DNA from: a virus
Direction: 5' to 3' (one strand)
DNA: 64,000 bases
Virus record (IMG/VR): IMGVR_UViG_3300021335_000011
Location: 1 to 64,000 of that record
Positions within the stretch are counted from its first letter, which is position 1. Every line of letters begins with the position of its first letter. The notes beneath the pieces are model-generated. The model did not search any database. It was not told the origin of the DNA and worked only from the letters and a program-made list of their open reading frames with translations. Below, piece after piece: positions 28,948 through 64,000 of the stretch. Both the position numbers and the translations under genes were made by a program.

Positions 28948-30789
28948 ATGGCTACTACAATTAAATCATCAGATTTAGACTTTGAAAATATTAAAGGAAG
29001 GTTAAAAACCTATTTTCAGGCTAAACCCGAATATGCTGATTATGATTTTAATGCGGCTGGTCTAAATAATATCTTAGACGTTCTAGCCTATAATACTCAT
29101 GTAAATGGACTTACAGCCAACTTTGCATTGAATGAAGCTTTCCTTAATACAGCTCAATTAAGAAGTTCAGTTGTATCTCATGCTGAGGCTTTAGGTTATG
29201 ATGTTCGATCGAAGGTTGCATCACGAGCTTTACTTACAATAACATTCAATTTAACTGGTGTTACAAATAGGCCAACTACTGTTTTAGTTCCTCGCGGATT
29301 AACATTTAGTACACAAATTGATAGTATCTCATATACGTTTAGAACGTTAGAAACGTACACAGCTAGAGATGATGGCACTGGAAATTATACTCTTGAGACT
29401 TCTACTGGATCAACTGATATTCCAGTGTTCGAAGGTAAAGAAATGACAAAAACATTTCTTGTAGGAGAAAAAGAAGAACGTCAGATCTACGTCATACCTG
29501 ATGAAAATATGGATAAATCTACAGCAATTATTGAGGTATACGATACTGCAAGTTCGTCGAACTTTACTAGCTATTCACCAGTAAAAGATGCAGTACGCAT
29601 TACACCTGATTCTGAATTATTTACTATTCGTGAATCACCTAATGGATATTATGAAGTAAACTTCGGTGATGGTATTTCTTTTGGTAAATCACCAGAACCT
29701 GGTAATAAAATTGTTATTACTTATCTCTCATCTGGTGGACCAACTGGTAACGATGGCGCAGTATTTACACCTACTAGCACTGTCACTGTATTAGGGGTTG
29801 TGTATCCTACATCTTGTGTAACAGTATCAGTATCAACGGGTGGGGCTGAAAAGCAATCAATTGAATCAATTAAAAACTTAGCACCATATGCATATGCTAC
29901 ACAACAACGACTAGTTACATCGCTTGATTACAAAGCTACAATACAAAGTAATTATACAGATATTAAAGATGTGACTGTATGGAGCGGAGATCAAAACGTA
30001 CCGATTGATTATGGCGCAGCGTATGTCTCTATTAAATATAGTACTGGAACACCACAAAGCACAAAGACACAAATACAAAATAGCATTGTAAATAACTTTA
30101 CAGACAATCTATCAGTGATGTCTATTACTACTAAATTTGTTGAACCTATTGAAGTATTTTTAGAATTAAATACTGTGTTTAACTTTGATCCTGCATTAAC
30201 TGGAAGAACTTTGGCTTCTGTGGAACAAGATATATACAATTTCCAAACTAGTTATTTCGCAAATAATCTAGGAACATTTGATGCTGTTTTCCGTAGATCA
30301 AATATGCTCACAGAAATTGATGCATTTAATGCTGCAATCTTGTCATCTCGATCTGATGTACGGGCGCAATTAAGATTTGTTCCTACAGTAGGTCAAGTTA
30401 CATCTCATCAACTTAAATTCCCTATGCGTATTGCAGATCCCGATGATGTTGAAGCTCAAATAATTAGTGACACATTCCAGTTTAGAGGAGTAGTTGCTCA
30501 GCTACGTAATAAATTAAGTGATACAAAATTGCAAATATATGATCTTTCTGGTAATGTACTTGCTGATAACGTTGGCCAATATAATGCTGCAACAGGCGTA
30601 GTATCTATTATTGGATTTAATCCGCAAAAGCTTTTATTTGGATATAACTATATTAAAGTATCTGTTTATCCAGAGAATCAAAGCTTTGTAAAACCGCTAC
30701 GTAACTATGTTCTTGGCCTTGATCCTAATAATTCTTCTGCATCTGCAATTATTGATAGACAAACAACGACACTTGAAGTTGATAACTAA
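28948..30789 (+). CDS. gp6: Baseplate wedge protein gp6
   Basis: LDFENIK, LDVLAYNTH, NEAFLNTAQLRSSVVSHA, FGDG and RLVTSLDY. Confidence 0.95.
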   Translation: MATTIKSSDLDFENIKGRLKTYFQAKPEYADYDFNAAGLNNILDVLAYNTHVNGLTANFALNEAFLNTAQLRSSVVSHAEALGYDVRSKVASRALLTITFNLTGVTNRPTTVLVPRGLTFSTQIDSISYTFRTLETYTARDDGTGNYTLETSTGSTDIPVFEGKEMTKTFLVGEKEERQIYVIPDENMDKSTAIIEVYDTASSSNFTSYSPVKDAVRITPDSELFTIRESPNGYYEVNFGDGISFGKSPEPGNKIVITYLSSGGPTGNDGAVFTPTSTVTVLGVVYPTSCVTVSVSTGGAEKQSIESIKNLAPYAYATQQRLVTSLDYKATIQSNYTDIKDVTVWSGDQNVPIDYGAAYVSIKYSTGTPQSTKTQIQNSIVNNFTDNLSVMSITTKFVEPIEVFLELNTVFNFDPALTGRTLASVEQDIYNFQTSYFANNLGTFDAVFRRSNMLTEIDAFNAAILSSRSDVRAQLRFVPTVGQVTSHQLKFPMRIADPDDVEAQIISDTFQFRGVVAQLRNKLSDTKLQIYDLSGNVLADNVGQYNAATGVVSIIGFNPQKLLFGYNYIKVSVYPENQSFVKPLRNYVLGLDPNNSSASAIIDRQTTTLEVDN

Positions 30790-31874
30790 TGGCATCTAAC
30801 GAATCCCAAAAACACTACGATAGGATTGGTATCAATTTTAGGCGTGGTCTTATAGATGAAGTATTACCTGAATATTTCCTCGAAGACTATCCTAATTTAG
30901 TTACATTTCTAGAAGGTTACTACGAGTTTTTAGATTCAGATACTAACTTTGATGGGATTATACACGAACTTAATACGATTAAAGATGTTGAAGATGCAAG
31001 CCTAGCTCGTCTTGATCAGATGTTTGATACCCTTGCCCTTGGAATATCAGCTGGTCGGTTTAAGTTTCCTCGTGAAGCTATACGAAACTTTGGTAATTTT
31101 TTTAGAGTTAAAGGATCCCAATATTCTGGTGAAGGTTTCTTTAGAGCTTTCTTTGATGCTGAAGTCGAAATTAAATTTCCTAAAGATGAATTATTTAATG
31201 TAGGCGAATCTTTTATTGGTACTGAATACAATAAAAGAATTCAAGACGGTGGCGTGTATCAAATATTTTCTATTCTTATCAAAGGTCCTTTATCATTTAA
31301 AGATTGGGAACAGTTGTGGAGAAAGTATGTCCATCCTACTGGATTCCATCTTGCCAATGAGGTATCAATTGAAGGCATAGATACCATTAAAATGGTGACT
31401 GATGAATCTATACCAGATCCATTTAAAAATATTTTCTTTGTTATTGACAGCGCTGCAGCAATTCAAATTCATAGTCCGCCTCAGGCCCAAGGCGAAGTAT
31501 CTCATCTTAATAATACCAGTTATGGACCTAAAGCTCTTATTCAAAATAAGTTTCTTATCAATGATCCGCAGTTTAGAACAAATCCATATCGACTTATTAA
31601 TATGTTTGCAGATTCTGATGCTGCAGTTGCGGTTGGTAGTAAGCTATACCCAACAATTCAAGATGTTATGGGTGTTTATAAGAATCTTAAAGAATGGTCA
31701 GATTGGGGTGTAACTTATGATAACCTCGATTCGGCTACTGTAGCTATTACGTTTGATAATACTTTTGAAACATATGATATGAGAAAGTTCGATACATATA
31801 GAAGAATATATATCGAAGAAGATTACGTAGCCCGCGGTTACCACGTAGATAATAAACTACCGTCAAATGTCTAA
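30789..31874 (+). CDS. Baseplate wedge protein (short gp7-like)
   Basis: LPEYF..DYPNLVTFLEGYYEFL, YQIFS and VHPTGF. Confidence 0.7.
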   Translation: MASNESQKHYDRIGINFRRGLIDEVLPEYFLEDYPNLVTFLEGYYEFLDSDTNFDGIIHELNTIKDVEDASLARLDQMFDTLALGISAGRFKFPREAIRNFGNFFRVKGSQYSGEGFFRAFFDAEVEIKFPKDELFNVGESFIGTEYNKRIQDGGVYQIFSILIKGPLSFKDWEQLWRKYVHPTGFHLANEVSIEGIDTIKMVTDESIPDPFKNIFFVIDSAAAIQIHSPPQAQGEVSHLNNTSYGPKALIQNKFLINDPQFRTNPYRLINMFADSDAAVAVGSKLYPTIQDVMGVYKNLKEWSDWGVTYDNLDSATVAITFDNTFETYDMRKFDTYRRIYIEEDYVARGYHVDNKLPSNV

Positions 31875-31891
31875 TTAATTAGATCAACTTA

Positions 31892-31899
31892 TATAAATA
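31892..31899 (+). promoter_or_regulatory. T4-type late promoter
   Basis: TATAAATA upstream of ORF 31925. Confidence 0.7.
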
Positions 31900-31924
31900 A
31901 GAATAATCGATTTGTAGGAAAAAA

Positions 31925-33754
31925 ATGGCACAGCAAACAGTAAATACAGGTACAGTTGGTAACGATGGTCTCGGTGACGATCTTCGAACTGGTGCTACTA
32001 AAATCAATGCTAACTTTACTGAAATCTATTCTAATATCACTGCTTTATCGCTGCAGCTAAATTTAGCGAGTGTTAATAGTAACGGTATTGGTTTTGGTGG
32101 TGATGGTATTCTTTTTGATGGAGCTACTAAAGATTCATTTACAACTGTCACTCGCCTTGTTCCTGAGGATCCTACACAAATTAATGTTGTTACCATACCA
32201 GATAGTACAGGTACATTATCTTTAATTAGTGATATTAAAAATGTGGCAGATAGAGACTATGTCTTAGGAATTCGTGGTTTAGGAACTGCACTATTAGATT
32301 CTGCTACTGCTATTCAAACAATGTTCGCAAGAGGATTTCTTGATTCTGCTCGTATGGTAAGAATTTCACTAGACTCTGCAGATGTAACAGCCTATATCGA
32401 TAGCGATTATGTCCAACAACGGCAAGCCGGTGGATTAGATTCTGCTCGTGCTTTAAATCTATTTTTAACTCCTATACAAATTGATTCTAATATTGATTCA
32501 AATTTTGCGCGGGACATTGCTTCTCGTGATGTACGATTAGACAATCTAGATTCGTCTCTCACTCTAATTACTAATTTTAAAACTGATAATATTCCAGAAG
32601 ATTCTGCACTCTCAAACGGTGGTTCAGGACCAGGTAATTTATACTTCACAACAACAAGAGCTAATACAGCAATTGATAATAGAGTTGATATAAACTTTAT
32701 TAACAATTTGAATGTAGATGCTGAAACACTTGGTGGTCAAACTTTAGCTAATATTCAAGCAGATTATCAAGATGCTACTGAAGTACAAACCATAATTAAT
32801 AATAACTTTGATGCAGTTAGTAGAGATTTTGTACCAGCCACTGACGAAACATACGATCTTGGTACAGCTACTAAAAAATGGAAAGACTTGCATCTTAGCG
32901 GTACTACTATCTTCCTTGGTGGTGGTGAGCTTAAATTTGAAAACAGTGAATTTAGATTTGGTGGTGGTACATTAGGTATTAATGATGCTGTTGTCCTTGA
33001 TCCAACGCAAAGGCTCTTCTTTGATTCTGCGGCTGGTGCACCAAATATTACTAAGTCAGATGCCGTACAACCAAACGGTTTGGTAATTAGCGCTAATGCT
33101 CTTTCATTACGAACAGTAGACGATGTAAGTGCAGATTGGTTTGTAAGAACAAATACACCAGCAGGTGGTACAATGTCTCGCTTCGGTGAAGGTGGTTTGG
33201 TTATGCTACCGCATAACACTGATACCGAGAGAACGCAATATCACACAAATGCATTTTATAATACAACATACCGTAAAGGTGCAATGCACTATAATACGGA
33301 TCAAAACAAATTTGAATTTGCAGACTCAGATGGTTGGTATGCAATTGATCGAGCTGCTGTAGCTTCGGCTGCAGTAAACGCCCAATATTTACAGTTTGGA
33401 TTAAATGGAACTGTTAGTGGAGCCTCAAGTGCTGTAGACTTAGTAGGTGCAAATGGAGCTTCGATGTTAAGCGGCGTTGTTATGCCAGTTGCAGGTACTA
33501 TATTAAGAATTACTATGTCTTCAAATGCAGCTGCACATAGTTCTGGCAGCTTGACACATCAAATAAATATATACAAGAATGGCTCATCAGTTGCAACTCC
33601 ATCAGTCGAAGTAACATCAACTGGAGAAATAACTCTAAACTCTGCATTAAGTATAGCCTTTGCAGCAGGCGATAGATTAAAAATAGCAGTTGATAATGAT
33701 ACTGGTCTTGATACTGAAGACCATAATGTTGTAGTCAGATTTGTAGAAAGTTAA
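31925..33754 (+). CDS. Baseplate fibre/connector with a gp9/gp10-like N-terminus
   Basis: MAQQTVNTG..NDGLGDDLRTGATKINANF, then fibre motifs NLYFT and YDLGTATKKWKDLHLS. Confidence 0.75.
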   Translation: MAQQTVNTGTVGNDGLGDDLRTGATKINANFTEIYSNITALSLQLNLASVNSNGIGFGGDGILFDGATKDSFTTVTRLVPEDPTQINVVTIPDSTGTLSLISDIKNVADRDYVLGIRGLGTALLDSATAIQTMFARGFLDSARMVRISLDSADVTAYIDSDYVQQRQAGGLDSARALNLFLTPIQIDSNIDSNFARDIASRDVRLDNLDSSLTLITNFKTDNIPEDSALSNGGSGPGNLYFTTTRANTAIDNRVDINFINNLNVDAETLGGQTLANIQADYQDATEVQTIINNNFDAVSRDFVPATDETYDLGTATKKWKDLHLSGTTIFLGGGELKFENSEFRFGGGTLGINDAVVLDPTQRLFFDSAAGAPNITKSDAVQPNGLVISANALSLRTVDDVSADWFVRTNTPAGGTMSRFGEGGLVMLPHNTDTERTQYHTNAFYNTTYRKGAMHYNTDQNKFEFADSDGWYAIDRAAVASAAVNAQYLQFGLNGTVSGASSAVDLVGANGASMLSGVVMPVAGTILRITMSSNAAAHSSGSLTHQINIYKNGSSVATPSVEVTSTGEITLNSALSIAFAAGDRLKIAVDNDTGLDTEDHNVVVRFVES

Positions 33755-33764
33755 GGAATAAACT

Positions 33765-35117
33765 ATGCCAGCTATTGTAACCGACGCACTTAGAACCCTA
33801 CTTGCTAGACAATTTTTTGATCAGTTTGCTAATCAAACTGCACGCTACTATATCGGTATTGGTAGATCAGAAATTTGGGATAGCTCTGATGCAGTTCCTA
33901 CACCTCAAAATACACCAGGTGAAGTAGCAGCTGCCCGTGCACAAATGCAATCAGTTAAGAAAGTGCAAGCTACATCTCTAGTTGTTCCGCGCAATAACTG
34001 GTCAAACGGTACACTCTATTCACAATATGACAATACTGTGTCAGGTTACCCAACTGAACCATATTATGTTATGAATGATAACAACAACGTTTATATTTGC
34101 CTAGAAACTGGCAGAAATAATGCTGGTGTTGCTGTAGCATCAACTGTAGAACCAACTGGATCAAATAATGATTCATTTAGACTTTCTGATGGCTATGTAT
34201 GGAAATTCTTATTTACTGTAAGTGCATCTCGTGCAAATAGCTTTATGTCTTCTAACTTCTTGCCAGTTAAAAAGCAAGATCCTACAGATTCATCGTCTAC
34301 TGGTATTCAATTAAAACAAGAAGAAATTCAAGACACCGCATTGGTTGGCGCAGTCACATCAGTAATTATTACTAATGTTGGTTCTGGTTACACCTCAAAT
34401 CCTAATGTACAAATTATTGGTGCAGGTGGATTAGGTACTGGTGCAGCTGCTAGAACAAGAATTGATTCAGCAACAGGCACATTAGCTTATATCAAAATGG
34501 TTGATAGTGGTACAACTCAAAAACTTGGTAGTGGATATACTCGCGCTGAAGTTGTAATTAGTGGTGGCGGAGGTAATGGAGCCAAAGCAAGAGCAGTACT
34601 TGGACCAGACTCTGGTGTTGGTGCTGATGCACGTGTTGATTTAAAATCAGCAGCTATCATGTTCCATTCGAGAATTGAAGGCACAGATAGTAACTTTATT
34701 ATTGATCAGGACTTTAGACAAGTAACACTTATTAAAGATATTAAAGATAACAACGGTGTTATTTTTACTGGTACTACTGGTAATACTCTTTCTAAAATGA
34801 CCCTTGCAAGTACAGTACAAGCATTTACTAAAGACAAGATCATTCGTGGACAAATTACGCTTGCTGAAGCCTATATCGATAATATTGATTCAAACGAAAT
34901 TTATTATCATCAAACTAGTGAAACAGGATTCACAGCTTTCCAAGATGGAGAAGTAATTAACGAAACTAATGGTGTTGGTCAAGGTATTGTTGATTCTGCA
35001 GTAATTCCGCCTGAAGTTGATCCAAATACCGGTGATATATTATACATAGATAATAGAGCTGCTGTTGCTCGATCTAACGTACAAGCAGAAGATGTAAAAG
35101 TTATCATTCAGTTCTAA
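33765..35117 (+). CDS. gp8: Baseplate wedge protein gp8
   Basis: YYVMN..NVYICL, DGYVWKFLF, DFRQV and GDILYIDNR...EDVKVIIQF. Confidence 0.85.
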   Translation: MPAIVTDALRTLLARQFFDQFANQTARYYIGIGRSEIWDSSDAVPTPQNTPGEVAAARAQMQSVKKVQATSLVVPRNNWSNGTLYSQYDNTVSGYPTEPYYVMNDNNNVYICLETGRNNAGVAVASTVEPTGSNNDSFRLSDGYVWKFLFTVSASRANSFMSSNFLPVKKQDPTDSSSTGIQLKQEEIQDTALVGAVTSVIITNVGSGYTSNPNVQIIGAGGLGTGAAARTRIDSATGTLAYIKMVDSGTTQKLGSGYTRAEVVISGGGGNGAKARAVLGPDSGVGADARVDLKSAAIMFHSRIEGTDSNFIIDQDFRQVTLIKDIKDNNGVIFTGTTGNTLSKMTLASTVQAFTKDKIIRGQITLAEAYIDNIDSNEIYYHQTSETGFTAFQDGEVINETNGVGQGIVDSAVIPPEVDPNTGDILYIDNRAAVARSNVQAEDVKVIIQF

Positions 35118-35126
35118 GGATACGAA

Positions 35127-38100
35127 ATGCCTAATACGTTCACTACTAGCTCATTTGCTACTACATATAAAGACGATTTTAAAGATAGTGATCACTATCA
35201 TCGTATCTTATTTAATAGCGGTAAACAACTGCAAGCGCGTGAACTTACGCAGATGCAGACTATTATACAAAAAGAAATTGAAAGATTCGGCCGTAACATC
35301 TTTAGAGAAGGAGCTTCAGTTGTACCAGGTGGTATGACTGTTAATAATAAGTACGAATTTATTAAGATCGCTGCATCTACCAATTTACCATCTGACACAT
35401 CATCAATGATTGGTGATACATTTACAGGTCAAACTTCAGGAGTTGCGTGTAAAATCCTAGAAGTTATAGCAGCTACTGGTAGTGATCCTGCAACTATTTA
35501 TGTTCAGTACACAAATCGTAGTTCAGTCGCAATCAGTGGTGCTGCTATTCGTATGTCACCTGCAGAAAACATTGTTGGTGCATCGAGCGGCGTAACACTT
35601 ACTGTACAAGCTACTAACACATCTTCTAATAGAGCAATTGGTCGTGGTACCAAAGCATCTATGCAAACAGGAACATTCTTTACTCAAGGTCATTTTGTGC
35701 AAGCAGATGAACAAGAAGTAATGATTTCTAAATATGATTCTGCACCAGACGAAAATGTTGGGTTTGTAGTTAATCAAGATATTGTCACAGTATCAGACAC
35801 TTTAGCACTATATGATAATCAAGGTACATTACCCAATCTTACTGCACCTGGTGCCGATAGATATCGTATTCAATTGACTCTTACTACTGAATCAGAAAAA
35901 GATGCTGCAGACACATTCGTATTCTATGGTAAGATACGTGATGGATTATTGATTGAAACCGTTACAGGTACAGATGAATATAATAAAATTGCTCAATTCG
36001 ATGCTATCAAAACGAAGGAAATTAACGGTGACTTTATTAAGAAGCCGTTTAAGATCCATTATGATTCTGCTTCAGGTACCGAATTTAATATTAATATTTC
36101 TCCTGGTACAGCTTATGTAAATGGATACAGAGCTAATAAATCAGATCCAACAGTTATTAAAGTTGACAAAGCTTTAACCGCAGTTACTTTGCAAAATGAG
36201 CCTATCTCAGCTGAATTTGGTAACTATGTTATTATTAATGAGGTTAATGGTCTACCTAATATTGAAGACTTTGAGAGTCAAGATTTGCGGGATGATAGCG
36301 GATTTGGTGGAGCTACTATTGGTACAGCACGAGTAAAATCTGTAGAAGAAGACGGTGCTAATTGGCGGTATTATTTGATGGACATTCAAATGAATGCTGG
36401 CGAAAACTTTAGAAATGTTAAATCACTTGGAACATCGGCTACTGCATTTGGTAATCTTGAACTTGAAAATACTATTGCTGTAATTAAAGATGCTGCAAAT
36501 AATAATTTGCTCTTCGGTTTTCCACAATCTCGTGTAAAAAGTATTTCTGATGTTGTACTAACAACTCAACGGCGATTGACTGCAACTGCCGATAATAATG
36601 GTAATGCAACATTTCCTGGACTTGGAACTAACGAAGCGTTCGAAAATAGTAATCAGTGGGTATTTTCTCGTGTGGCTGGTGGATCATTTTCTCCAACTAG
36701 TATTACTGGTAACGGTACACAAGCAGCATCTATCACAGGAGCGCCTGCTAATACTGCTATCGAAGTTATTGCACAAGTTCAGAAAACTGGTATTTTACGA
36801 AATAAAGTATTAACAGAAACAACTATAACATCTACAGTGAATACTCCTGCTACAGGCGCGCCATTCGTTAGTTTAGGAAAGGCAGATGTTTATTCAGTAG
36901 ATCGTATTCGCGCAGTTGATTCTGACGGTGCTGATTTATTTGCGGACTTCCTTGCTGATAATGGAGCTAGAGATAATTTCTATGATGTTGGTAAGATTAT
37001 TCTAAAATCAAATGCAAAAAGCCCAGTTGGTAATATCTTTGTACGATTTAAATATTTTGATCATACCACACCTGGACATTATTTTGCAGCCAACTCATAC
37101 ACAGGTCAACTTGATTACGGAGATATTCCAACCCATACCTTAGCTGATGGTGTTACTAGAATTCCATTAACTGACGTAATTGATTTTAGATCTCGTAAAG
37201 ATGACGCTGGAGTAGGATTTAGCGCAGGTACAGCCCGCGTAAATGAATTACCTGTAAATACAAGCCTTATTACAATTGATGCCGAATACTATATGCCTCG
37301 GTTTGATAAACTGGTTGTTGATCAAGAAGCAAATCTTAGTATTGTTACTGGTGCACCGTCGCTTACTCCACAGTATGCACCTACACCTCAAAACACCTTA
37401 GAGCTTTATCGAATTGAAATGAATGCAGGCTCAAAGGATGAAGAAGACATGGTAATGCGGAATATTGAATCCAAGGGATTCACAATGTCCGATATTCAGC
37501 GTCTCGAAGAAAGAGTAGATCGATTAGAAGAAGCAACAGCTCTTAGCTTGCTAGAAGTTGATGTTAATAACTTGGCAGTATTTGACTCTGCAGGAAATGA
37601 TCGTTCAAAGTCAGGATTCTTGGTCGATAACTTTAGTGACCACTCATCATCATTTACTAATAATCCTGAGTTTAGATCATCAATTGATCCGCTAGATCGT
37701 GTATTGCGACCAACATTTAACGAAGAAAATGTTAGACTTATTTACGATTCAGATCTTTCGACTAATGCTATTCTAAAAGGTGATAACGTCTATATTAAAT
37801 ACACTGAACAAACGTTTATCGATCAGCCAGAAGTATCACAGACAATTAATATTAATCCATTTGCGGTCATTACACATCAAGGAAACTTGACACTTTCACC
37901 GTCATCTGATGAATGGAAAGAAACAGTATACATTGCACCACGAGTTATCAATGGTGGTATACGACTTAATACTAACCAAGCCTTCTTGTTTAACAACTGG
38001 AATTGGGCATGGCAAGGCAATAACGTAAATAACTTACGATTAGGTCAAGTTACAAATTCTCGTACTACACGAGCTGGTAACCGTATTACTACTCAGCGTA

Positions 38101-40932: not shown

Positions 40933-40935
40933 ATT

Positions 40936-42192
40936 ATGACATTACGAAGACCTTTATATTATACTGATAGCGGCAATATCAAAGAAATGAGTGATATTGA
41001 ATTAGCTGATGTGCATGCTGAAGCAAAAAGATTCTATTTGAACAATCCACCAGTACAATTAACAGTTGTTAATAGCGGAGGTAATCTAGGCGGCATTAAC
41101 CAACGTCAAGTTATTGCTGGCGCGGCCACGAATAATTCAAGGCGTTTTTCTAGTAATAGTCCTGGAAATATTAGTGTTCAAACAATGACATATTCTAGGA
41201 TTCATGAAACTAAAGCTACGCCACCGTTTGGAGCTAATGGAAATTTTGATCTTACTACACTTAAAGGTAATTTAGGTACTAATTGGCCTGTATATTATAA
41301 TGATAGCGGTAATTTTGAACCATTTACTGATTCAGATTTTATAGATACGTTTGCAAACCCTGTTATCCAAGAGCTTGGTGCAGCTAATACTGATCCATTA
41401 TATGTTATTGGAGAAAGTTCTGGCGTTGTTAGTGGTAGATATACTAAAGTTTCTAATACTCCAGTATACACAGATCTTATTGCAAATATAGCAGCGTATA
41501 CTTCAGGTTCTTTACCAGAAACTAAAAAACAAAGTATAACAGTTCAAAACTGGTATTTGTGGAAATTAAAAAGTAATAGAACAGGTCAAGTGTTTATCGA
41601 TGTTGCTTATAGAGATTCAGCATATAATAGGCCAGTTTTAGGTACAGGCTTTGAGGTTGATTTAGAAAAAAGACCAGGTAGTACTTACATACATTCTATT
41701 AGATCTCCAGGTAGTGGATATGTAATCTCAGATAATTTTATTGTTACTGGCAATAAACTAGGTGGTAAATCACCTGAAAATGATTGGCATTATTATGTTG
41801 ATGCAATTGATTCTTTTGGTGGTGTAACTAATTTATTACCTCATCCATTTAATAATGGTATAGGTAATCGCTATAATCAACCGTTAACTCATACAGATAG
41901 TAGTAGTACACCTCTTGGAGTTCATCTTAGATCTATGAAGAAAACTGATTTTGAAACAATGGTAAATAGTGCTTTGACACATCAAGCAACGACAGAACCA
42001 GGCCAAATGATAGAATTTAAATGGAATCAGGGTGCACAAGTTGGAACTACTATCATTGACACACGTTATACTAATGCGACATCAAATCAACGAGATGAAC
42101 AAGATGCCGATAACTATAGGTCACAGAGAGTGCCAACAGGTGGAAACTTACAAGACGTAGACACGCATTACTTAGGAGTACGAATATTATGA
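40936..42192 (+). CDS. Putative structural protein
   Basis: Located in the late operon, with an internal repeat PLYYTDSGN/PVYYNDSGN. Confidence 0.6.
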   Translation: MTLRRPLYYTDSGNIKEMSDIELADVHAEAKRFYLNNPPVQLTVVNSGGNLGGINQRQVIAGAATNNSRRFSSNSPGNISVQTMTYSRIHETKATPPFGANGNFDLTTLKGNLGTNWPVYYNDSGNFEPFTDSDFIDTFANPVIQELGAANTDPLYVIGESSGVVSGRYTKVSNTPVYTDLIANIAAYTSGSLPETKKQSITVQNWYLWKLKSNRTGQVFIDVAYRDSAYNRPVLGTGFEVDLEKRPGSTYIHSIRSPGSGYVISDNFIVTGNKLGGKSPENDWHYYVDAIDSFGGVTNLLPHPFNNGIGNRYNQPLTHTDSSSTPLGVHLRSMKKTDFETMVNSALTHQATTEPGQMIEFKWNQGAQVGTTIIDTRYTNATSNQRDEQDADNYRSQRVPTGGNLQDVDTHYLGVRIL

Positions 42193-57000: not shown

Positions 57001-60000
57001 AATAACGGAGGTTCGGGTACAGTAGAATTTACAGTACCTATGAATGCTCCAACATCCCTAGTTTATCAGTGTACAGTTCACGGTGGAATGGTTGGCGATA
57101 TTGTTATTAATGCTGCAGCTGGTCTTGATTCTGCACAAATTATTAATTTAATTGATAGCGCCTATGTTCAGCTTCGCGACTCTTCTAGTAGTGGTGGCGG
57201 CGGTGGTGGTGGAGGCGTTGATTCGGCCACAACAATTGCACTTATTGATTCTGCTTATGTTAAAGCAAGAGTCGATCACAATGCTAACGAAGTATTAATT
57301 TTTGGTGATGACCAACAAGTCGCTGGTACACTTGCACAATCTAACACTTCAGTAGTTTCATTCTTTAATAGTATTTATCCTGATGGTCAATTTATAGCAT
57401 CTTACAATTATGCTAGTGGTGGCTTGCCTATTGGTCAATGGTTGTATGCTTATTATTGGGTCAATTCTGGTCATGGTTATTTCCAAGTAGTAAGTAAAAC
57501 AGATCTTGGAAATGGCACATACAGATATTACTGTGAAAATTCAGCAGGAAATCCAGCACCTAACTGGGCCGGCGGTTGGACAAACTACGTTGTTATAGCA
57601 AGTACAGTAGGTGCTAAAGACAAAGCTTTACGAATTAGTCACCAAACAAACGGTGATTACCTTTTCTTTGACGGTCGTAGAAACTTCTATTTCTCACAGA
57701 ATGATAGCGATCAAAGAAACTTTAAGATCGAACTTACTGGAACCTCAGCCCTTGAAATGGTTGGCGGTAAACATATACATTACGGAAATAGTTATGATAG
57801 TGATGGTGATTTTCCAAATGCTTCAGTGTTTAAAGGTATGGTTGCACATGCTAAGAATAATGATGCTTTGTATTATGCGAATGATTCTGGTGTATGGACA
57901 ACAATTGCTGGAACAGGTGCACAAGCATTCCAAGATTCTGCGGTTGTTGTTGGGTTAATCGATTCGGATTATATTCTCAATAAGAAGTTTGTACCTGGTG
58001 ATGCTGAAAGACGATGGAATATTACATCAGCGGCACCTGCTGGAGCACAGGCTGTCGCTGTTGGAGATTATTGGCTTGATCGTGATACCGAAGTTTTATA
58101 TAAACTTACTACTGATACAAATTGGACAACTACTTTACCTGCAGGGACCTTTACTGCAGAAGCAGGATTAACATCAAATAATTGGTTTGCAAATGGAGTT
58201 GGTGGTGATCCAGCCACAATTAATCAGGGTCCTCCTGGTCCAGTTGGTACATTTAACAGAACTTTCTTGATGGGTACTAGCCCATATAATTCTGGTGGTC
58301 GATACACATTTACACAACCAGTTAATTTTGGATATTTTCAGATTGGTAATCTAGCCTCTGGACATATTTACTCTGTCGGATATACCGATGGCTCGTACAT
58401 GGTTTCAAACACTGGTATCAATGGTTCTAAAACCGCAACGCCAAGTTCATATACTTGGTATGACGCAAACGGTGTTTCTTTAGGTCAAACAGTGGCGGCT
58501 GGTAGTGGTTTTAGAAACTATAGTCATCCAAACGGCACATTAGCAACATATATCGTTATTGGTAGAAATAACTATGGTACTCGTGGCTATAGTTGCTATA
58601 TGTTCTTTTCTGGAGCAAGTAGTTGGCAGCGGATAGGTGAAATTTATGATTCAGGTGATATTAAAAATGTTATCGATTCTGCGTATGTTACTGGTATTTC
58701 TGGCAGTGGCGGTAGCGGCAGTGGATTAGATTCAGCTGCAGTCACCACTCTTATCGATTCAGCATATGTACAAGCGAGACAAACAGCTGGTGGTGGAGGC
58801 ACAGACTCTGCAGCAGTACAAACTCTAATTAATGCTGCTATTGATTCTGGTGCTGTACCATTCACCCAAAATTACTTTCATTTTACATCAGATTCTGGAC
58901 ATAAAATATATAGTGGATTCGATGATGATAGTGATAGTTTAACCTACACAACTGGAGCATTAACTGTTTACCTTAACGGTATTTTGCTTGTAGATTCAGT
59001 AGACTATACTGCAACTAATGGAACATCTATTGTATTGACTGATTCTGCAGAATTGGGAGATATTCTTACAGTACAAACATTTGCTGGCAATAGCCTTGGA
59101 CTAGACTCAGCAAAAGCAATCAACTTAATTGACAGTGCATATATCGCTGCAAGAACAACAGCAGGTACAGACTCTGCTGCCATTATCAACCTTATTGATA
59201 GTGCGTATGTTCAAGCTCGGCAAGCAGCTGCTTCTAGCGGTGTTGATTCTGCTGTTGTTATAAGTCTTATAGACAGTGCGTATGTTAATCAAAGGGTTTC
59301 CTTTACAGGACCATCATCATCTAGAACTTCTCTTGGATTAACCGGTGTAACAACCGGATCAAATAATGCAACTTGGACATTTAACACTGATGCATCTGCC
59401 GAGAACTTTAAGTTATTAATTGACGGCGTGTATTTAGCAAGCAGCGCCACAGGTAGCGTATTAGGATTTAAAGATGCTGGTGGAAAATACTTCTCTGTTG
59501 GAGACAATTACAATAGCCATAATTTTACCAGATCAGTTGTTGCTGTTAGAACCAATAATGCAGTAACTCTTAGTTGGTCTGGTGGACTTGCATATAGTTG
59601 GGCTAACTTTACAGATTATAGCGGTGGATTTAGTGCTGCATTCACAGCAAATGGTGGCACATTACCTTTAGTTTCTGTGTATTCACCAAAAATAACAAAT
59701 GGCCAGCCTGGATCATTTACTACTCCATATGTTGTTGGCGATGCAACAACTGGTAATGGAGCTGGTGTATTTGGTACAAACACAACAAACTATGGTGCAC
59801 TAGTAACAGTTGCCGCCTCAGCAACATATTTGTCATTAACAAATGTCATTGATTCTGCTTATGTAGAAGCTCGCGTAAATGCTTTGGATTCAGCAGAAGC
59901 AATTAACCTTATTGATTCCGCTTATGTAAGAGCTAGACAAAACTTTGCGTATAGCGCACTTACTAGTACACCAACAGATCTTAGTGACTTTGATAATGAT

Positions 60001-62391
60001 GTAGGTTATATTACCGATGCATCATTTGATGACTTTGAATCAAGAGAATTTATTGGTAATCAAGGTGGGTTAACAGATAAAGTATATTCATTTATTGTCC
60101 CGGTTGGAGTTACAACTATTTCTGCTGTCGCCATTGCTGGTGGTGGTGGAGGTGGTGAGGCAGCATCTGGCACAGATGGTGTAGGTGGCGGTGGTGGTCT
60201 ATCGTACGATACTTCTCTTGCTGTTACTCCAGGTGAAACACTTACAATTACAGTTGGCCATAGCGGCAATGGCGGTATGGCACCTAGCGATCCACCTAAT
60301 TCTATCGGTACCGGTGACACGGCTAATAACACGACTATTAAAAGAGGTTCTACTGTATTATTGCAAGCCAATGGTGGTACAGGTGGTAGTGGAGGTACTA
60401 ATGGTACCGGTGGATCTGGTGGTACAACTTTATCATACGATGGTGGTGGTAATGGTGGAGTTCGTGGAGCAGGTCAATATACTGGTAACGGTGGATCTTC
60501 AGGATCTGCGAGTCTCTTAGGAACATCAAGTACAGATTATTTGTATGGTGAAGGTGGTGCAGGCTACAGCCATGGCCAAAAGGGTGCAGTAAGAATTATT
60601 TGGGGCACTGGTAGATCTTATCCAGATACAAATATTGTACAAACGTTCTTGAACGTATATAGTAGTGGAATTGATTCAGCTGCTGTTATAAGTCTTATTG
60701 ACTCAAATTATGTAAGACAAAGAGTTACTAAATCTGATCTCGATATGGAAGGGAATAAAGTTCTCTTTGCAAATGTTTATGATTCAACCGGAGCTTTGCC
60801 AAGTGCAACCACTTATCATGGCATGTTTGCTCATGTTCATGCCACTGGTGCAGGATATTTTGCTCACGCTGGTAACTGGACAAGATTAGCTAATCAATCG
60901 GAAGTAAGTTCATACGATTCAACAAATACTATCGGCATAATAGATTCTGCATATGTTCAAGCTAGACAAACATCTGGTGGTGGTGGAACAGTCGATAGTG
61001 CAGATATTATTGCGATTGTTGATAGTGCATATGTTCAAGCTAGACAAACATCTGGTGGCGGAGGCGGAGGCGGAGGCCTAGATTCTGCTCTCGTATCACA
61101 ATTAATTGATTCAGATTATATTGCTACAAAGGTAGACTTTACTCGTGGAGAATTTACTACACAAAGATCGCAGTATACAGCGACAGCATCGCAAACAGTA
61201 TTTAATCATAGCTCAATTGATGCTACTCATCTTGACGTCTATCTTAATGGTATCTTGCAAGTGGTCAATGATGATTACACTGCCAATACATCCGCCGTTA
61301 CCTTCACAACAGGTGTCGACAGCGGATACAGCGTCTCAATTATTGAAAGGCGTGGACGTGTCGCTACCCAACGAGGACTAGTTGAAAGTAAATATTACTT
61401 TACTACACCGACACCAATCACATCAATTACCGGTGTTGATGATAATGGTGTTACACTTGATTACTCAAATGGAAATTTAGATGTCTACTTGAATGGTATT
61501 CTTCTAAAAGATTCAGATGATTATTCTACCAATGCTGGTACTACAGTAACTCTTATATCTGCCACAGATTCAAATGATCTTGTTACTCTTATCAATCGTA
61601 AGGGTGTAGTCGTAACACCAAATGTAGAGAATTATGAATTTACTGCTACCGCTAATCAAACGGTGTTTAGCGGTTCAGACATTAATGGTAATACTTTATC
61701 ATATGCACCTGGTGCAATTCAAGTTTATATGAATGGTATTCTGCTTCGAGCTGTTGATTACACGTCAACAACTGGTTCTAGTATTATACTTGCTACAGCA
61801 GCTGCAGCTAATGATGAAGTTGTTGTATCAGCATTTAGTAATCCTGGTCAGAATATGGAGCTGTATAAGTTTACCGCAGATTCTGGTCAAACCATTTTTA
61901 GCGGTAATGATATTGTAGGTGCTTCACTTGCATATCAGCCTGGTAACATTCAGGTATTCATGAATGGCTTGTTATTAAATGATTCAGATGATTACAACGC
62001 CTTAAACGGTATGTCAGTTGTTCTAACATCTGGCGCCGATGCAAGCGATGAAATTAAAGTTGCATCTTTTGTATCGAATACAAATGCAATTAGAACAAAT
62101 GCATGGACTGCGCCAAGCGGAACACCGGTTGCAGCATCTGCTGGTGATAAGTTATTCATTGATGTTTCATCTTCTGCAAAGACTGTGACACTTCCATCAT
62201 CTGCAAGTATGGGTGATGAGATTCGAATCATTGATGTGACAGGAAATGCAGCAACAAACAATATTACAGTCGCACGAAATGGACATAATATTCAGGGTTC
62301 ATCAAGCGATCTAACTATTAACATTAACAGAGCTGGTATCGGATTGGTTTATTACAATTCCGCTCAAGGTTGGGTACTGATAGAGAACTAA
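54049..62391 (+). CDS. Giant modular tail fibre protein (2780 aa)
   Basis: LKRSS..GELAINFADGKIYYK N-terminus, EGxNLYYT repeats, many IDSAYVxAR repeats, cupredoxin-like and Gly-rich domains, and five V(Y/F)(L/M)NG repeats. Confidence 0.85.
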   Translation: MTTPKVLLKRSSVVGRVPQSGDLDYGELAINFADGKIYYKDNSNTIKAFIDSARTQSLIDAVNQAAENQLDSAEVIDLIDSAYVQLRQSYNALTLGGDSGDYYRNYHNLYNKPLILDIVDIQNIIDNYVNQTFVDNLNVDADTLDGLNSTQFLRSDSDTRLTADLIIDSNLTVGGDATFNNNVTLSGNLYGPATMYIDPAAHDSDTGRVIIRGDLQVDGTQTIVNSTTVSINDKNIVLADSATNAAEADGAGITVNGANANITYNAAEDEWQFNKKTQTPNLEVTNVIDATTVNTTNITATTINTTNITGNYTNFDSDFDSALGTKTTTDVAEGTNLYYTTTRADSDFDVRITTKTTNNLTEGDNLYYTTARADSDARSALSANKVSGFGNLTYDSAAGKFSYTGISTQEIRNRFAAQGDLSYDSATGVFSIDVENVYTKTNFDSDLGDASTTDLPEGSNLYYTKTRVDSDFDARFAGKSTDNLAEGNTNLYYTTTRHDSDTRVLVDSAYVQARVDSSFIATIADLTFLDSGDALQLIDSSHVQLKAKGLDYNVLSNKPALIDSTLVTQLIDSTYIRVTIDSAHIENVINNSTTVFVNNVDSAYVQLKAKNLDYNVLSNKPNLIDSGLVEGLVDSAYVQLHAKGLNYNVLSNKPNVLDSSDIVSIIVSETLDSDLIINLVDSAYIQLRDRFQDSAGVKAVIDSAYVRARVKTNQDLRTTDSVTFAGINVLANSITFGESDATMTYLPDSDMIQFNKPVKGDNVEFTGATIQSDSSTFNGLYVYDNRLGQKDWVARFSRRQNEYSSPAVVLISTDAEERSDIAFEIRGNANSNLLGPEFDDKFHDDSNTKFAIYGSGHTLIGYSNLPGGVGALYPYSMLSGDNNVKLQVNYGISVDSNLVFHEGNYKTYIDSAYIEARRPAETIFSVGGDGSNYVFSGDGFPSNANDPTLYLTRGKTYKFTNISSSHPFEIRLSNGGAAYSDGVTNNGGSGTVEFTVPMNAPTSLVYQCTVHGGMVGDIVINAAAGLDSAQIINLIDSAYVQLRDSSSSGGGGGGGGVDSATTIALIDSAYVKARVDHNANEVLIFGDDQQVAGTLAQSNTSVVSFFNSIYPDGQFIASYNYASGGLPIGQWLYAYYWVNSGHGYFQVVSKTDLGNGTYRYYCENSAGNPAPNWAGGWTNYVVIASTVGAKDKALRISHQTNGDYLFFDGRRNFYFSQNDSDQRNFKIELTGTSALEMVGGKHIHYGNSYDSDGDFPNASVFKGMVAHAKNNDALYYANDSGVWTTIAGTGAQAFQDSAVVVGLIDSDYILNKKFVPGDAERRWNITSAAPAGAQAVAVGDYWLDRDTEVLYKLTTDTNWTTTLPAGTFTAEAGLTSNNWFANGVGGDPATINQGPPGPVGTFNRTFLMGTSPYNSGGRYTFTQPVNFGYFQIGNLASGHIYSVGYTDGSYMVSNTGINGSKTATPSSYTWYDANGVSLGQTVAAGSGFRNYSHPNGTLATYIVIGRNNYGTRGYSCYMFFSGASSWQRIGEIYDSGDIKNVIDSAYVTGISGSGGSGSGLDSAAVTTLIDSAYVQARQTAGGGGTDSAAVQTLINAAIDSGAVPFTQNYFHFTSDSGHKIYSGFDDDSDSLTYTTGALTVYLNGILLVDSVDYTATNGTSIVLTDSAELGDILTVQTFAGNSLGLDSAKAINLIDSAYIAARTTAGTDSAAIINLIDSAYVQARQAAASSGVDSAVVISLIDSAYVNQRVSFTGPSSSRTSLGLTGVTTGSNNATWTFNTDASAENFKLLIDGVYLASSATGSVLGFKDAGGKYFSVGDNYNSHNFTRSVVAVRTNNAVTLSWSGGLAYSWANFTDYSGGFSAAFTANGGTLPLVSVYSPKITNGQPGSFTTPYVVGDATTGNGAGVFGTNTTNYGALVTVAASATYLSLTNVIDSAYVEARVNALDSAEAINLIDSAYVRARQNFAYSALTSTPTDLSDFDNDVGYITDASFDDFESREFIGNQGGLTDKVYSFIVPVGVTTISAVAIAGGGGGGEAASGTDGVGGGGGLSYDTSLAVTPGETLTITVGHSGNGGMAPSDPPNSIGTGDTANNTTIKRGSTVLLQANGGTGGSGGTNGTGGSGGTTLSYDGGGNGGVRGAGQYTGNGGSSGSASLLGTSSTDYLYGEGGAGYSHGQKGAVRIIWGTGRSYPDTNIVQTFLNVYSSGIDSAAVISLIDSNYVRQRVTKSDLDMEGNKVLFANVYDSTGALPSATTYHGMFAHVHATGAGYFAHAGNWTRLANQSEVSSYDSTNTIGIIDSAYVQARQTSGGGGTVDSADIIAIVDSAYVQARQTSGGGGGGGGLDSALVSQLIDSDYIATKVDFTRGEFTTQRSQYTATASQTVFNHSSIDATHLDVYLNGILQVVNDDYTANTSAVTFTTGVDSGYSVSIIERRGRVATQRGLVESKYYFTTPTPITSITGVDDNGVTLDYSNGNLDVYLNGILLKDSDDYSTNAGTTVTLISATDSNDLVTLINRKGVVVTPNVENYEFTATANQTVFSGSDINGNTLSYAPGAIQVYMNGILLRAVDYTSTTGSSIILATAAAANDEVVVSAFSNPGQNMELYKFTADSGQTIFSGNDIVGASLAYQPGNIQVFMNGLLLNDSDDYNALNGMSVVLTSGADASDEIKVASFVSNTNAIRTNAWTAPSGTPVAASAGDKLFIDVSSSAKTVTLPSSASMGDEIRIIDVTGNAATNNITVARNGHNIQGSSSDLTININRAGIGLVYYNSAQGWVLIEN
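60948..61058 (+). repeat. 33-bp direct repeat within the fibre gene
   Basis: TGCATATGTTCAAGCTAGACAAACATCTGGTGG at 60948 and 61026. Confidence 0.8.
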
Positions 62392-62392
62392 T

Positions 62393-64000
62393 ATGACAAA
62401 TTTAACTGACATTAGAAGTAATGCAATATCAGCGGCAGGTGCCGGATTAACTGTATATGCAACAAAAGAAGATCTACCATCAAGTGGATTAACTTCTGGT
62501 GATCAGGCTTATGTGACTGCTAACTCTCGTCTGTATGTTTCAAACGGTTCTGGTTGGTATAACATTGCACTGATTAACGCAACTCCGTCTCTGTCAATTG
62601 ATCCTACTGGTGTTATAGCACTTGCGAAAGATGGTTCAACACCAACAGTAATTACTCTTACAGCTACTGACTCTGATAATGCTGTATCTGGATTAACATT
62701 TACCGTTGATTCAGATGGAAGCTTTGGCGGTATGGCCACGATTAGCCAAGATTCGAGTGTATTTACTATCACACCGTTAAGTGAAGATAGCGCCACGACT
62801 TCATCAGCAACGTTGACATTCAAGGCATCAGATGGTATTAACTTTGGATCTGGTGATAGAACACTTACTCTACTTTTTGAAATTCCTAATTCCCAATATA
62901 CTACCTTTTTACTTCAAACTGATGCATCTCAATCAGATACACAAATCGATGCTTCTACTAATGCACATACACTAACACAATATAATAATGTAACTTCTGA
63001 TGCATTTACTCCATATCATCCTGGTGGATACGCAACGTATTTTGGCTCAGCTACAGATGGTATCACAACAGATCTTTCTCCAGCAACTGGAGATTGGACA
63101 ATAGAAGGATGGGTTTGTCACACAGCAAACACCGGTACAGGAAATCAAAATAGAATATTTGGCGCTGGTACGAATGATCCACTTTTGAATAACACAGGTT
63201 TAAATGGTCATAATTTTACAATCGGAAATAACCAGAAATTCAGTGTAAGTCAAAATTTTGCTATCGGTCAATGGTATCATTTTGCCATTGTAAGAACCAT
63301 ATCAGATACGACAATAAGATTTTATGTTGATGGAGTAGAAAAGGCATCACATACTGCTGCAAGTGGCCATGATATACCAACTAAATCGGCATTTTCTGTA
63401 GGTCGTGATAATGGATTTACTAGTTATGGAATGACAGGCCTTATTAAAGATTTTAGATATGTAATTGGCACTGCAGTATATACATCAGCATTTACTCCGC
63501 CAACTCAGCCTTTAACTGCGATTAGTGGAACAGATCTACTATTATGTAGTTTGCCCTATATAGCTGACGCGTCTGGTAATGATAATGCAATTACACAAAC
63601 AAGTTCAGTATTTACGCAAGTCAGCACCCCATATCCATTAGGATCTGCATACAATAGAGATACACACCTTGGTTCTACAATATTTGATGGAACTGATGAT
63701 TATATCGAAGGTCCTTCTGTAGACTTAATGGGAGATGGCGCATTTACAGTTGAATGTTGGACAAAAGTGAATTCAAGTGGTGGCACTTATACAGATGCAT
63801 TCTTAGCACAATACCAAACAAATAATAAATTTATCTTAGGTGTAAAATCAAATGTCACTCGAGTTTGGATGGGTGGATCTGAGGTTAGAGTAGGTACTAC
63901 TAACATTGTTGGTGGAGATTGGAATCATATTGCATTAGTTAGAAATGCAAGTAACTCATGTCAACTTTATGTTAATGGTAAGGCTGATGGCGCAGCATTT
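62393..64000 (+). CDS. LamG/concanavalin-A-like fibre or receptor-binding protein, 3'-truncated
   Basis: ATG 62393 (MTNLTDIRSNAISAAG...). Motifs GDWTIEGW, WYHFAIVR, FTVECW and WNHIALVR. No stop seen before the window end. Confidence 0.8.
   Translation, partial: MTNLTDIRSNAISAAGAGLTVYATKEDLPSSGLTSGDQAYVTANSRLYVSNGSGWYNIALINATPSLSIDPTGVIALAKDGSTPTVITLTATDSDNAVSGLTFTVDSDGSFGGMATISQDSSVFTITPLSEDSATTSSATLTFKASDGINFGSGDRTLTLLFEIPNSQYTTFLLQTDASQSDTQIDASTNAHTLTQYNNVTSDAFTPYHPGGYATYFGSATDGITTDLSPATGDWTIEGWVCHTANTGTGNQNRIFGAGTNDPLLNNTGLNGHNFTIGNNQKFSVSQNFAIGQWYHFAIVRTISDTTIRFYVDGVEKASHTAASGHDIPTKSAFSVGRDNGFTSYGMTGLIKDFRYVIGTAVYTSAFTPPTQPLTAISGTDLLLCSLPYIADASGNDNAITQTSSVFTQVSTPYPLGSAYNRDTHLGSTIFDGTDDYIEGPSVDLMGDGAFTVECWTKVNSSGGTYTDAFLAQYQTNNKFILGVKSNVTRVWMGGSEVRVGTTNIVGGDWNHIALVRNASNSCQLYVNGKADGAAF

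Follow-up and report, generated by a model that had tools for sequence, protein, structure and literature searches.

Outer virion genes and the Asp-Ser-small motif

The window analyzed here is the whole 64,000-nucleotide stretch formed by the first 64 kb of the 72,061-bp IMG/VR contig IMGVR_UViG_3300021335_000011, which derives from a marine T4-like myophage. Its subject is a tripeptide, aspartate-serine followed by a small residue (D-S-small, in which small stands for Ala, Gly, Ser, Asp or Asn), carried by proteins of the baseplate periphery and tail fibres encoded from position 30,789 onwards. The gp6 protein is 40% identical to that of Phage C48C1 and approximately 30% identical to those of Melnitz, HTVC008M, Mosig and cyanomyophages, all of which are Kyanoviridae. 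Among the cultured relatives, Melnitz infects OM43, HTVC008M and Mosig infect SAR11, and the cyanomyophages infect cyanobacteria. A megablast search of 50,697 phage records, with 10 kb of the window as query, returned no match.

The window opens with an auxiliary block of enzyme genes, followed by gp32 and the genes for the inner virion proteins up to gp6. The outer baseplate genes come next, and a minus-strand island of 13 genes separates the baseplate and structural open reading frames (ORFs) from the fibre genes, which continue on the contig beyond the window. The features are summarized in Table 1.

To define the motif, the expected count of each dipeptide was derived from the protein's own composition, and 20,000 composition-preserving shuffles were generated per protein. 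Two sets were used: the nine outer-virion ORFs of the window (30789-64000) and the 13 outer-virion ORFs of the 72-kb contig. In the nine-ORF set, Asp-Ser (DS) occurs 157 times against 53.4 expected (z 14.2) and ranks first of the 400 dipeptides, while the related pairs behave differently: DT is depleted (29 against 59.3, z -3.9), as is DD (20 against 48), ES (16 against 20.9) and NS (40 against 51.9) stay below expectation, and SD reaches 73 against 53.4. The initial annotation had counted DS by eye, and its counts are reproduced almost exactly (Table 1; gp6 carries 2 against 3.4 expected). The excess over composition that it had left to be computed is established for the set as a whole; protein by protein, it holds for ORFs 31925, 40378, 54049, 51844, gp8 and 40936, and is not significant in 30789, VrlC and 62393. 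All four sites of the wedge protein 30789 are nonetheless D-S-[A/D], and their 16 pairs in four relatives are all kept; likewise, VrlC is not enriched in DS, yet 10 of its 11 sites are D-S-small.

The motif extends to a third residue. In the 13-ORF set, DS totals 201 against 72.2 expected, with D-S-[A/G/S/D/N] at 179 against 31.3 (observed/expected, O/E, 5.7) and D-S followed by any other residue at 22 against 40.8. The residue after Ser is small at 89% of the 201 sites, compared with a background of 43%, and hydrophobic at 6% compared with 30%; the residue before Asp is hydrophobic at 62%. D-S-A is the commonest form and D-S-D the second (34 of the 157 sites in the nine ORFs).

The remainder of the window (12,928 aa) contains 31 DS against 50.8 expected, and at these sites the residue after Ser is small in 29%, compared with a background of 31%, i.e., there is no preference. 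In the inner virion proteins encoded at 17786-30789 (hub, tube, gp48, gp5-like, gp25 and gp6; 4,283 aa), D-S-small is absent against 6.3 expected, and DS occurs 5 times against 18.2. The motif is thus confined to outer virion proteins of unrelated contexts, globular gp8 included, as had been proposed. DS is also lacking, as first reported, in gp32, FabF and gp48. The same statement about the tape-measure protein depends on which gene is meant, its identity being ambiguous: it is true of the PHROG 'tail protein' at 22316 and not of the 541-aa ORF at 15977-17602.

A compositional, low-complexity or DNA-level origin of the pattern was considered. The pentanucleotide GANTC, which is produced by GAY-TCN codon pairs, occurs 60 times against 20.3 expected within 54-60 kb, and many sites lie in repeats. 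The serines of DS use TCN codons in 71% of the 201 cases, compared with 67% of 759 other serines; the remaining 29% are AGY, which give no GANTC. This ordinary codon use places the signal at the protein level, as the initial annotation had argued from the presence of both codon types, and excludes selection for GANTC as the cause. Composition is excluded by the shuffles, in which the observed counts of ORFs 31925, 40378, 54049, 51844 and gp8 are reached 0 to 4 times in 20,000. Together with the conservation at residue level and the non-repetitive sites described below, this renders an artefact hardly credible.

Table 1. Features of the window and adjoining contig, with DS counts (observed vs expected from composition) and the number of shuffles, out of 20,000, that reach the observed count.
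Feature	Position	Strand	Basis and remarks	DS	Shuffles
Auxiliary block	1-12824		Family searches; upstream of replication and structural genes; includes a methyltransferase fragment
Three paralogous GT25 glycosyltransferases	1010-3050		HMM/profile support
Class III aminotransferase	6279		Auxiliary block
FkbM/RfbT-like methyltransferase	8184		Auxiliary block
FabF-type ketoacyl synthase	11664		Auxiliary block	0
gp32	15078		Followed by hub, tube, gp48, gp53-like, gp5-like, gp25 and gp6 up to 30789	0
541-aa ORF	15977-17602		Syntenic with C48C1 ORF labelled 'peptidase'	2 vs 2.5
gp48	20323			0
PHROG 'tail protein'	22316			0
Baseplate wedge protein, gp7 position	30789..31874	+	Pfam PF23786, 1.5e-14	4 vs 1.7	1,676
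gp9/gp10-like baseplate-fibre connector	31925..33754	+	Pfam PF07880 N-terminal domain	13 vs 4.4	0
gp8 baseplate wedge protein	33765..35117	+	Pfam PF09215, PF25691	9 vs 2.5	4
VrlC/DUF4815 giant baseplate protein	35127..40172	+	Pfam PF16075, 7e-55	11 vs 8.2	3,665
184-aa protein ORF40378	40378..40932	+	~10-residue repeat; no Pfam match, no PDB relative by sequence	11 vs 1.65	0
418-aa structural protein	40936..42192	+	No known family	6 vs 2.0	173
Island of 13 genes	42669-51092	-	Between baseplate/structural ORFs and fibre genes
Possible nucleotide-diphospho-sugar transferase (lead only)	42669..43277	-	No HMM match; nearest Atlas clusters 0.98 so named; hhalign 69% to 43268
GT-A-like, paralogue of 46214	43268..44038	-	BLAST 2.5e-7; hhalign 95%; invariant DLD motif
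Family not known	44035..44655	-	No Pfam, PHROG or NCBIfam match; adjoins a GT-like gene in distant relatives; Mosig homologue annotated putative methyltransferase
Radical SAM with SPASM/twitch domain, 256 aa	44630..45400	-	Pfam PF04055, PF13186; NCBIfam matches far below cut-offs; close relatives only
Class I/II PLP aminotransferase-like, 292 aa	45360..46238	-	Pfam PF00155, 4e-13; HisC/CobD-like matches below cut-offs
GT-A-like glycosyltransferase	46214..46828	-	PHROG 1962 'glycosyltransferase', 5e-10; nearest named Atlas clusters Nucleotid_trans/GT8, 0.94-0.95 (lead); DLD motif
Seven more island genes, mostly unknown	46788..51092	-	Hints below curated cut-offs: GT2 (46788, E 0.056), 2OG oxygenase (48784), Asp/Asn hydroxylase-type cupin (49506)
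Tail-fibre assembly (chaperone)-like protein	51230..51583	+	PHROG 3304, 1e-16; 67-70% identity in distant relatives; directly 5' of fibre genes
716-aa fibre	51844..53994	+	DT 0 vs 9.5	17 vs 6.4	1
2780-aa beads-on-a-string fibre	54049..62391	+	Pfam Gly_rich_2	82 vs 22.6	0
Laminin_G_3 (ConA-like lectin fold) fibre protein	62393..64000 (to 64831 in contig)	+	Pfam PF13385, 3e-27; whole protein DS 4 vs 5.3	4 vs 3.9	11,226
1029-aa fibre	64843-67929		Beyond the window	28 vs 7.8
GT, glycosyltransferase; HMM, hidden Markov model; SAM, S-adenosylmethionine; PLP, pyridoxal phosphate; 2OG, 2-oxoglutarate.

In the connector ORF 31925, the DS sites form an array at residues 125-191. The 2780-aa fibre consists of globular domains joined by Gly-rich linkers bearing the module G(L/V)DSAxxxxLIDSAYVxAR, has 41 sites with another DS 9 or 10 residues away, and has in common with the 716-aa fibre a stretch of 54% identity. 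At its C-terminal end, residues 2699-2778 (62143-62382) match residues 96-175 of solved chains named 'tailspike protein' (7rfv, 7rej and 7rfo; E 3e-7 to 1e-6), a segment located near the N-terminus in those spikes. Sequence searches of the PDB with the DS modules found nothing.

The identification of gp8 is supported at both sequence and structure level. Residues 4-92 match PF09215 at 35.9 bits (cut-off 25), and the AlphaFold2 (AF2) model (predicted local distance difference test, pLDDT, 61.5; good at residues 190-450) retrieves T4 gp8 in Foldseek (1n7z_A and 5hx2_B/C, E 1e-5 to 9e-5), with template modelling scores of only 0.26-0.38. Of the DS sites in the confident part, those at residues 234, 247, 308 and 375 fall at strand ends or loops and that at 410 inside a strand; loops of low confidence contain sites 39 and 282, and 136 and 175 belong to an unmodelled stretch.

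Conservation and distribution of the motif

Four relatives at 54-84% identity retain 193 of 216 DS pairs, compared with 593 of 836 other Asp and 542 of 936 other Ser residues. The alignment columns give the same contrast at single sites. In gp8 (23 sequences, down to 59% identity), column identity is 0.96 at the Asp and 0.98 at the Ser, against 0.57-0.74 at the six positions on either side; in the gp10-like ORF 31925, it is 0.85 and 0.79 against flanks of about 0.55. VrlC has no peak of column identity at its DS sites.

Of 439 alignment cells for the Ser of DS, 374 are identical and 65 changed, only 6 of them to Thr, whereas other serines are identical in 1072 of 1979 cells and change to Thr in 237 of 907 cases. 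For the Asp of DS, neither Asn nor Glu is among the seven commonest replacements (the seventh accounts for 3 of 59), whereas other aspartates change to Asn or Glu in 228 of 611 cases. Site loss is therefore all-or-none: a site is dropped outright and is not turned into DT, ES or NS.

The trait also has a defined phylogenetic range. All 27 IMG/VR loci with an ORF40378 homologue (99% to 29% identity) have a DS excess in their plus-strand ORFs (O/E 1.9-3.1, z 4.0-12.4), and the 13 of them checked for D-S-small all have an O/E of 4.0-6.4. In contrast, the cultured relatives do without it. In HTVC008M and Melnitz, the outer proteins have per-protein DS O/E values of 0-2.1, none significant; in Mosig, the outer total is 46 against 49.1; and in C48C1, gp8 (3 against 2.7), the VrlC-like protein (7 against 10.9) and the 3347-aa fibre (8 against 14.8) have no excess. 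The residue after DS in these four phages is small in 44-55%, compared with backgrounds of 39-44%. A generic property of fibre proteins is excluded on these grounds. When gp8 is aligned to these outgroups, the nine clade sites correspond to unrelated residues, one of them within a six-residue insertion, and one site is also DS in Melnitz. Distant homologues of the 418-aa protein 40936 have 0-1 DS. Searches with tblastn, using a DS-rich fibre stretch, ORF40378 and 43268 against the 50,697 phage records, gave no match, although the low-complexity filter may hide repeats, and the peptide DSAYV returned chance matches only in the full-text literature.

The observation is consequently real and stronger than first stated: a clade-specific, exactly conserved tripeptide restricted to the outer virion. 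From its conservation peak, all-or-none substitution and clade specificity, D-S-small can be said to behave like a selected short motif.

Two side observations concern the relatives. Where the window has a 205-base gap before ORF40378 (40173-40377), four distant relatives carry, directly upstream of their ORF40378 homologue, a second DS-rich ORF (L017 9259-9987, L024 9326-9988, L021 9142-9987 and L031 9093-9977) with 8-15 DS against 1.4-2.8 expected, which matches ORF40378 by BLAST except in L031. In HTVC008M (8436-29906 of its locus), the outer proteins have no DS excess, yet 19 of 55 DS sites are followed by Phe (DSF), which suggests a different repeat motif.

The glycosyltransferase island and known systems

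The arrangement of the window resembles the host recognition cluster (HRC) of pelagi- and cyanomyophages, in which a hypervariable region following VrlC encodes tail fibres, GT8-type glycosyltransferases (GTs) and radical SAM cassettes (Zaragoza-Solas et al. 2020, PMC7029224). The succession of VrlC, the island and the fibres from 51844 matches it in position and content, while the gp14 end of the cluster falls beyond the 72-kb contig. Unlike in the present clade, the cultured members lack the DS motif, which is not mentioned in the available part of that article. Enzyme islands occupy the same position in Mosig and HTVC008M. In Mosig (9702-28447 of its locus), the island between VrlC and the fibre genes extends over about 19 kb, which illustrates how far the region can expand, and is annotated with Asp/Arg-hydroxylase-domain proteins, MoaA-like radical SAM proteins, aminotransferases, a carbamoyltransferase, methyltransferases and an epimerase.

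About ten GT-like genes had been announced for the window, five of them in the fibre region. Family searches reduce this number to five genes with HMM or profile support (the three GT25 genes, 46214 and 43268) and two leads (42669 and 46788). Of the island genes that separate baseplate and fibres, three encode GT-A-like proteins of about 200 aa (46214, 43268 and the lead 42669). Close relatives share the whole island in synteny. Six distant relatives were mapped; in the five that keep the DNA between the 40936 homologue and the fibres, the only element to recur is the GT-like gene beside the 44035 homologue, joined in two of them by a 42669 homologue, while the sixth (L029) retains a fibre ORF only. 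Among the 27 motif-bearing loci, 15 have a homologue of the GT family downstream; the other 12 comprise nine whose sequence stops within approximately 1.4 kb of the anchor gene, two with 2.8-4 kb, and L029 with the fibre instead. The radical SAM protein 44630 is unusually short and has a complete SPASM match, and the adjoining aminotransferase looks truncated; both occur only in the closest relatives.

Several characterized systems offer partial parallels. The general protein O-glycosylation of Bacteroidota acts on the motif D-(S/T)-(A/I/L/V/M/T) (PMC8550257, available part). The present motif resembles it in the Asp directly before the hydroxyl residue, in Ala as the commonest next residue and in its presence on many unrelated surface proteins. 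However, DT is depleted here and D-T-[AILVMT] occurs only 12 times in the 13 ORFs; of the 201 sites, 107 fit D-S-[AILVMT], mostly as DSA, whereas 94 carry other residues, mainly D, G, N and S. Since Thr is avoided and the next residue is small rather than aliphatic, two defining features of the Bacteroidota sequon are missing, and the likeness drawn by the initial annotation does not hold. The pathway in Bacteroidota acts outside the cytoplasm, whereas tailed-phage virions assemble inside, and the substrates here are virion proteins, presumably not exported. Glycosylation by the machinery of a Bacteroidota host is very improbable for further reasons. As the initial annotation had also argued, Shine-Dalgarno-like motifs (preceding 27 of 63 ORFs, compared with a background of 5.3%) fit a host outside Bacteroidota; the nearest cultured relatives infect SAR11, OM43 and cyanobacteria.

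The staphylococcal enzymes SdgA and SdgB glycosylate Ser flanked by Asp on Ser-Asp repeat adhesins in the cytoplasm (PMC3794999 and PMC8561734, available parts). D-S-D as the second commonest form and fibrous surface proteins as substrates recall this case. In contrast, the substrates of SdgA and SdgB are long uninterrupted SD runs, while the present sites are single tripeptides at least 9 residues apart, with one DSDS. SdgA and SdgB belong to GT-B/GT4. No GT-B/GT4 family was found in the Pfam, PHROG and NCBIfam scans of the island, whose candidates are GT-A-like with a DLD motif.

In mycobacteriophages, phage-encoded glycosylation of virions is reported to affect the C-terminal ends of capsid and tail-tube subunits (PMC12619734, available part, citing Freeman 2023; see also PMC12801897). 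The phage GT genes near structural genes in the window (46214, 43268, the lead 42669 and the GT25 genes) are comparable; the differences are the phage lineage and the sequon dispersed over baseplate and fibres. In the hyper-heptosylation of the autotransporters AIDA-I and TibA, the cytoplasmic transferases AAH and TibC modify Ser residues that recur regularly along a repetitive beta-helical surface protein, a system which differs in enzyme family, sugar and repeat. No report of glycosylated fibres or virions of marine myophages was found in open-access papers and bioRxiv.

Modification, structural and docking readings

The leading reading, tentatively held, is that the Ser of D-S-small is a site of enzymatic modification; it would explain all the facts with one cause and is ranked first. 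The acceptor would be the Ser of (hydrophobic)-Asp-Ser-(Ala/Asp/Gly/Asn/Ser) on outer virion proteins, and the group would be added in the cytoplasm, before or during assembly. The first candidate is O-glycosylation, carried out by the small GT-A-type transferases encoded in the fibre-region island, a suggestion for the mechanism in which we infer the enzyme, the sugar and the modification itself. At shaft sites, spaced by 9-10 residues, Asp and Ser would point outward and the flanking residues inward. Taken further, a widespread uncultured marine T4-like clade would modify, and most likely O-glycosylate, about 200 DS sequons on its baseplate periphery and fibres, among them regular arrays on trimeric shafts, with its own cytoplasmic enzymes; its host-recognition apparatus would be coated with sugar, and some HRC GTs would thus act on the virion and not on host lipopolysaccharide (LPS); we regard this wider proposal as possible and rather doubtful. 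The initial proposal that the phage decorates its baseplate periphery and fibres at DS sites accordingly stands in part: the motif behaves as if selected on outer proteins, while the sequon likeness fails and the link to GTs, on which it had drawn, is weak.

A number of observations weigh against modification, and first of all against the GTs as its agents. HRC GTs are read as modifiers of the host O-chain in the available part of PMC7029224. The island GT family is wider than the motif, with homologues at 25-27% identity in the motif-free Mosig and C48C1; comparison among relatives, as proposed initially, does not cleanly tie the motif to the enzymes. In the case of IMG/VR, 80 loci anchored on the GT were fetched, of which 70 have at least 1,500 aa of long ORFs. 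Taking D-S-small z of at least 3 as signal, 27 of the 70 carry it and 43 do not, which leaves the GT link weak. Four loci (L068, L080, L099 and L102) hold both the GT and the 44035 homologue and have no signal. The signal is present in 22 of 39 loci with a 44035 homologue and in 5 of 31 without, a difference confounded by relatedness and by which genes fall within the stored flank (at most 10 kb); the signal tracks VrlC relatedness equally well (21 of 35 compared with 6 of 35), and likewise hinges on the fibres falling inside the stored flank. Furthermore, the gp8 site positions are fixed, without turnover, a pattern expected of structural or binding residues no less than of modification sites. 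The plain depletion of DS in inner proteins also occurs in C48C1, a phage without the trait (10 against 17.7; D-S-small 2 against 5.9), while the inner proteins of HTVC008M and Melnitz have DS near expectation. This depletion is consequently no specific avoidance signal, and DS avoidance in inner proteins was dropped as a sign of an enzyme; only the absence of D-S-small (0 against 6.3) stands out, and the numbers are small.

The remaining points on that side concern repeats, and lead to a purely structural account. The gap between consecutive DS has its mode at 9 residues (29 cases), with 10 in 5 cases and 2 once. Another DS stands 9 or 10 residues away from 63 of the 201 sites, chiefly in ORF40378 and the two large fibres. 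Internal repeats raise the count: when the 11-mers surrounding the sites are clustered greedily, the 201 reduce to 100 clusters, 78 of them singletons, so that half of the sites collapse into repeat families. In C48C1, which lacks the general trait, the gp10-like protein has 31 DS against 17.7 in DS-led repeats, which indicates that shaft-type DS is possible without the wider pattern; in this protein ('baseplate wedge tail fiber connector', 1306-6012 of its locus), repeat units read EIRTDSEVNAL, NALIDSKITEF, DLVTDSDITSA and AQLIDSADATA.

Structural models give this account its form. The AF2 monomer of ORF40378 has a pLDDT of 44.5, too poor to use, with strands predicted over the repeats at this low confidence. 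By contrast, ESMFold2 predicts an intertwined homotrimer with an interface score (ipSAE) of 0.82, against 0.00 for the best of three controls, a pLDDT of at least 86 and three runs that agree in at least 96% of contacts. The mark used for the score is reached by 20 of 30 proteins solved as one-chain pairs and by 1 of 23 solved as single chains, a calibration made on two copies and not on three. The best-defined contacts join residue i to about i+5 of the next chain, over residues 83-128. The 25 inter-chain contact residues lie at positions -1, +2, +4 and +6 to +9 relative to the Asp; Asp and Ser are never among them. The model supports, without proving, that ORF40378 is an intertwined homotrimeric shaft in which hydrophobic and small flanks would pack inward, with Asp and Ser facing outward at each corner. 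Together with the gp8 model, it would place the motif at turns, strand ends and corners of trimeric shaft repeats.

According to the structural account, Asp-Ser-small is the corner or turn of a 9-10-residue trimeric beta shaft repeat and of beta-hairpins, and carries no modification. Repeats would have been duplicated and exchanged among fibre genes; Asp and Ser would cap the turn through side-chain-backbone hydrogen bonds, and the small residue would leave room for close packing. The contacts at -1, +2 and +4 explain the hydrophobic and small flanks, most gp8 sites of the confident region are at strand ends or loops, and a ladder of Asp/Ser corners would explain the periodic shaft sites, about a third of the total. 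The account is poor for the rest. The motif is dispensable for the orthologous folds of HTVC008M, Melnitz, Mosig and C48C1. The residue after Ser is small in 82% of the 78 singletons, compared with a background of 43%; the rule is thus not merely one repeat copied many times, and its recurrence there, together with nine separate gains in globular gp8, is hard to obtain through the needs of a fold alone. Turn and cap positions normally allow exchange of D with N and of S with T, which is nearly absent here, and Asp and Ser stand outside the best-defined inter-chain contacts. A purely structural role, the outcome that the initial annotation had named as refuting its proposal, is thus plausible for the periodic third of the sites and, as an explanation of the whole, we consider it less likely than modification.

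A docking or ion-binding motif would cover the same facts as modification: clade specificity, the exact requirement for Asp and Ser, restriction to outer proteins, and gp8. The exposed Asp carboxylate and Ser hydroxyl would bind a divalent cation of seawater or a common partner, such as another fibre or baseplate protein, an assembly chaperone or a host surface polymer, thereby stiffening or networking the outer virion. The fibre-assembly-like gene at 51230 and the lectin-fold fibre domains agree with this possibility. A site of two residues is, however, small for specific protein docking, and we judge the explanation improbable.

Modification of the Ser keeps the first place among the explanations. 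GT-rich islands beside the fibre genes of oceanic myophages are common and have so far been explained only by analogy, as modifying host LPS; an acceptor motif readable from sequence would make the role of the island GTs directly testable. If the sites are modified, some of the most abundant phages of the ocean would carry sugars or other groups on the determinants of their host range and particle stickiness. Otherwise, the motif still provides this phage clade with a simple marker and constitutes a new shaft repeat.

Two further enzymatic explanations were considered and rejected. The sulfatase motif processed to formylglycine has the form C/S-x-P/A-x-R. No fit to it was seen among the DS contexts inspected, and the radical SAM/SPASM gene, the candidate Ser-to-formylglycine maturase, is limited to close relatives. 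A relation to the 'DSL' phosphopantetheine site of acyl carrier proteins, connected with the phage FabF, was dropped: the ORFs scanned gave no phosphopantetheinyl transferase family, and the DS sites lack the fold context. FabF itself belongs to the auxiliary block, which, judging from its gene families, looks like a sugar or lipid-linked glycan pathway. The same block contains two paralogous genes with no assigned function, at 4663 and 5504, which are 40% identical.

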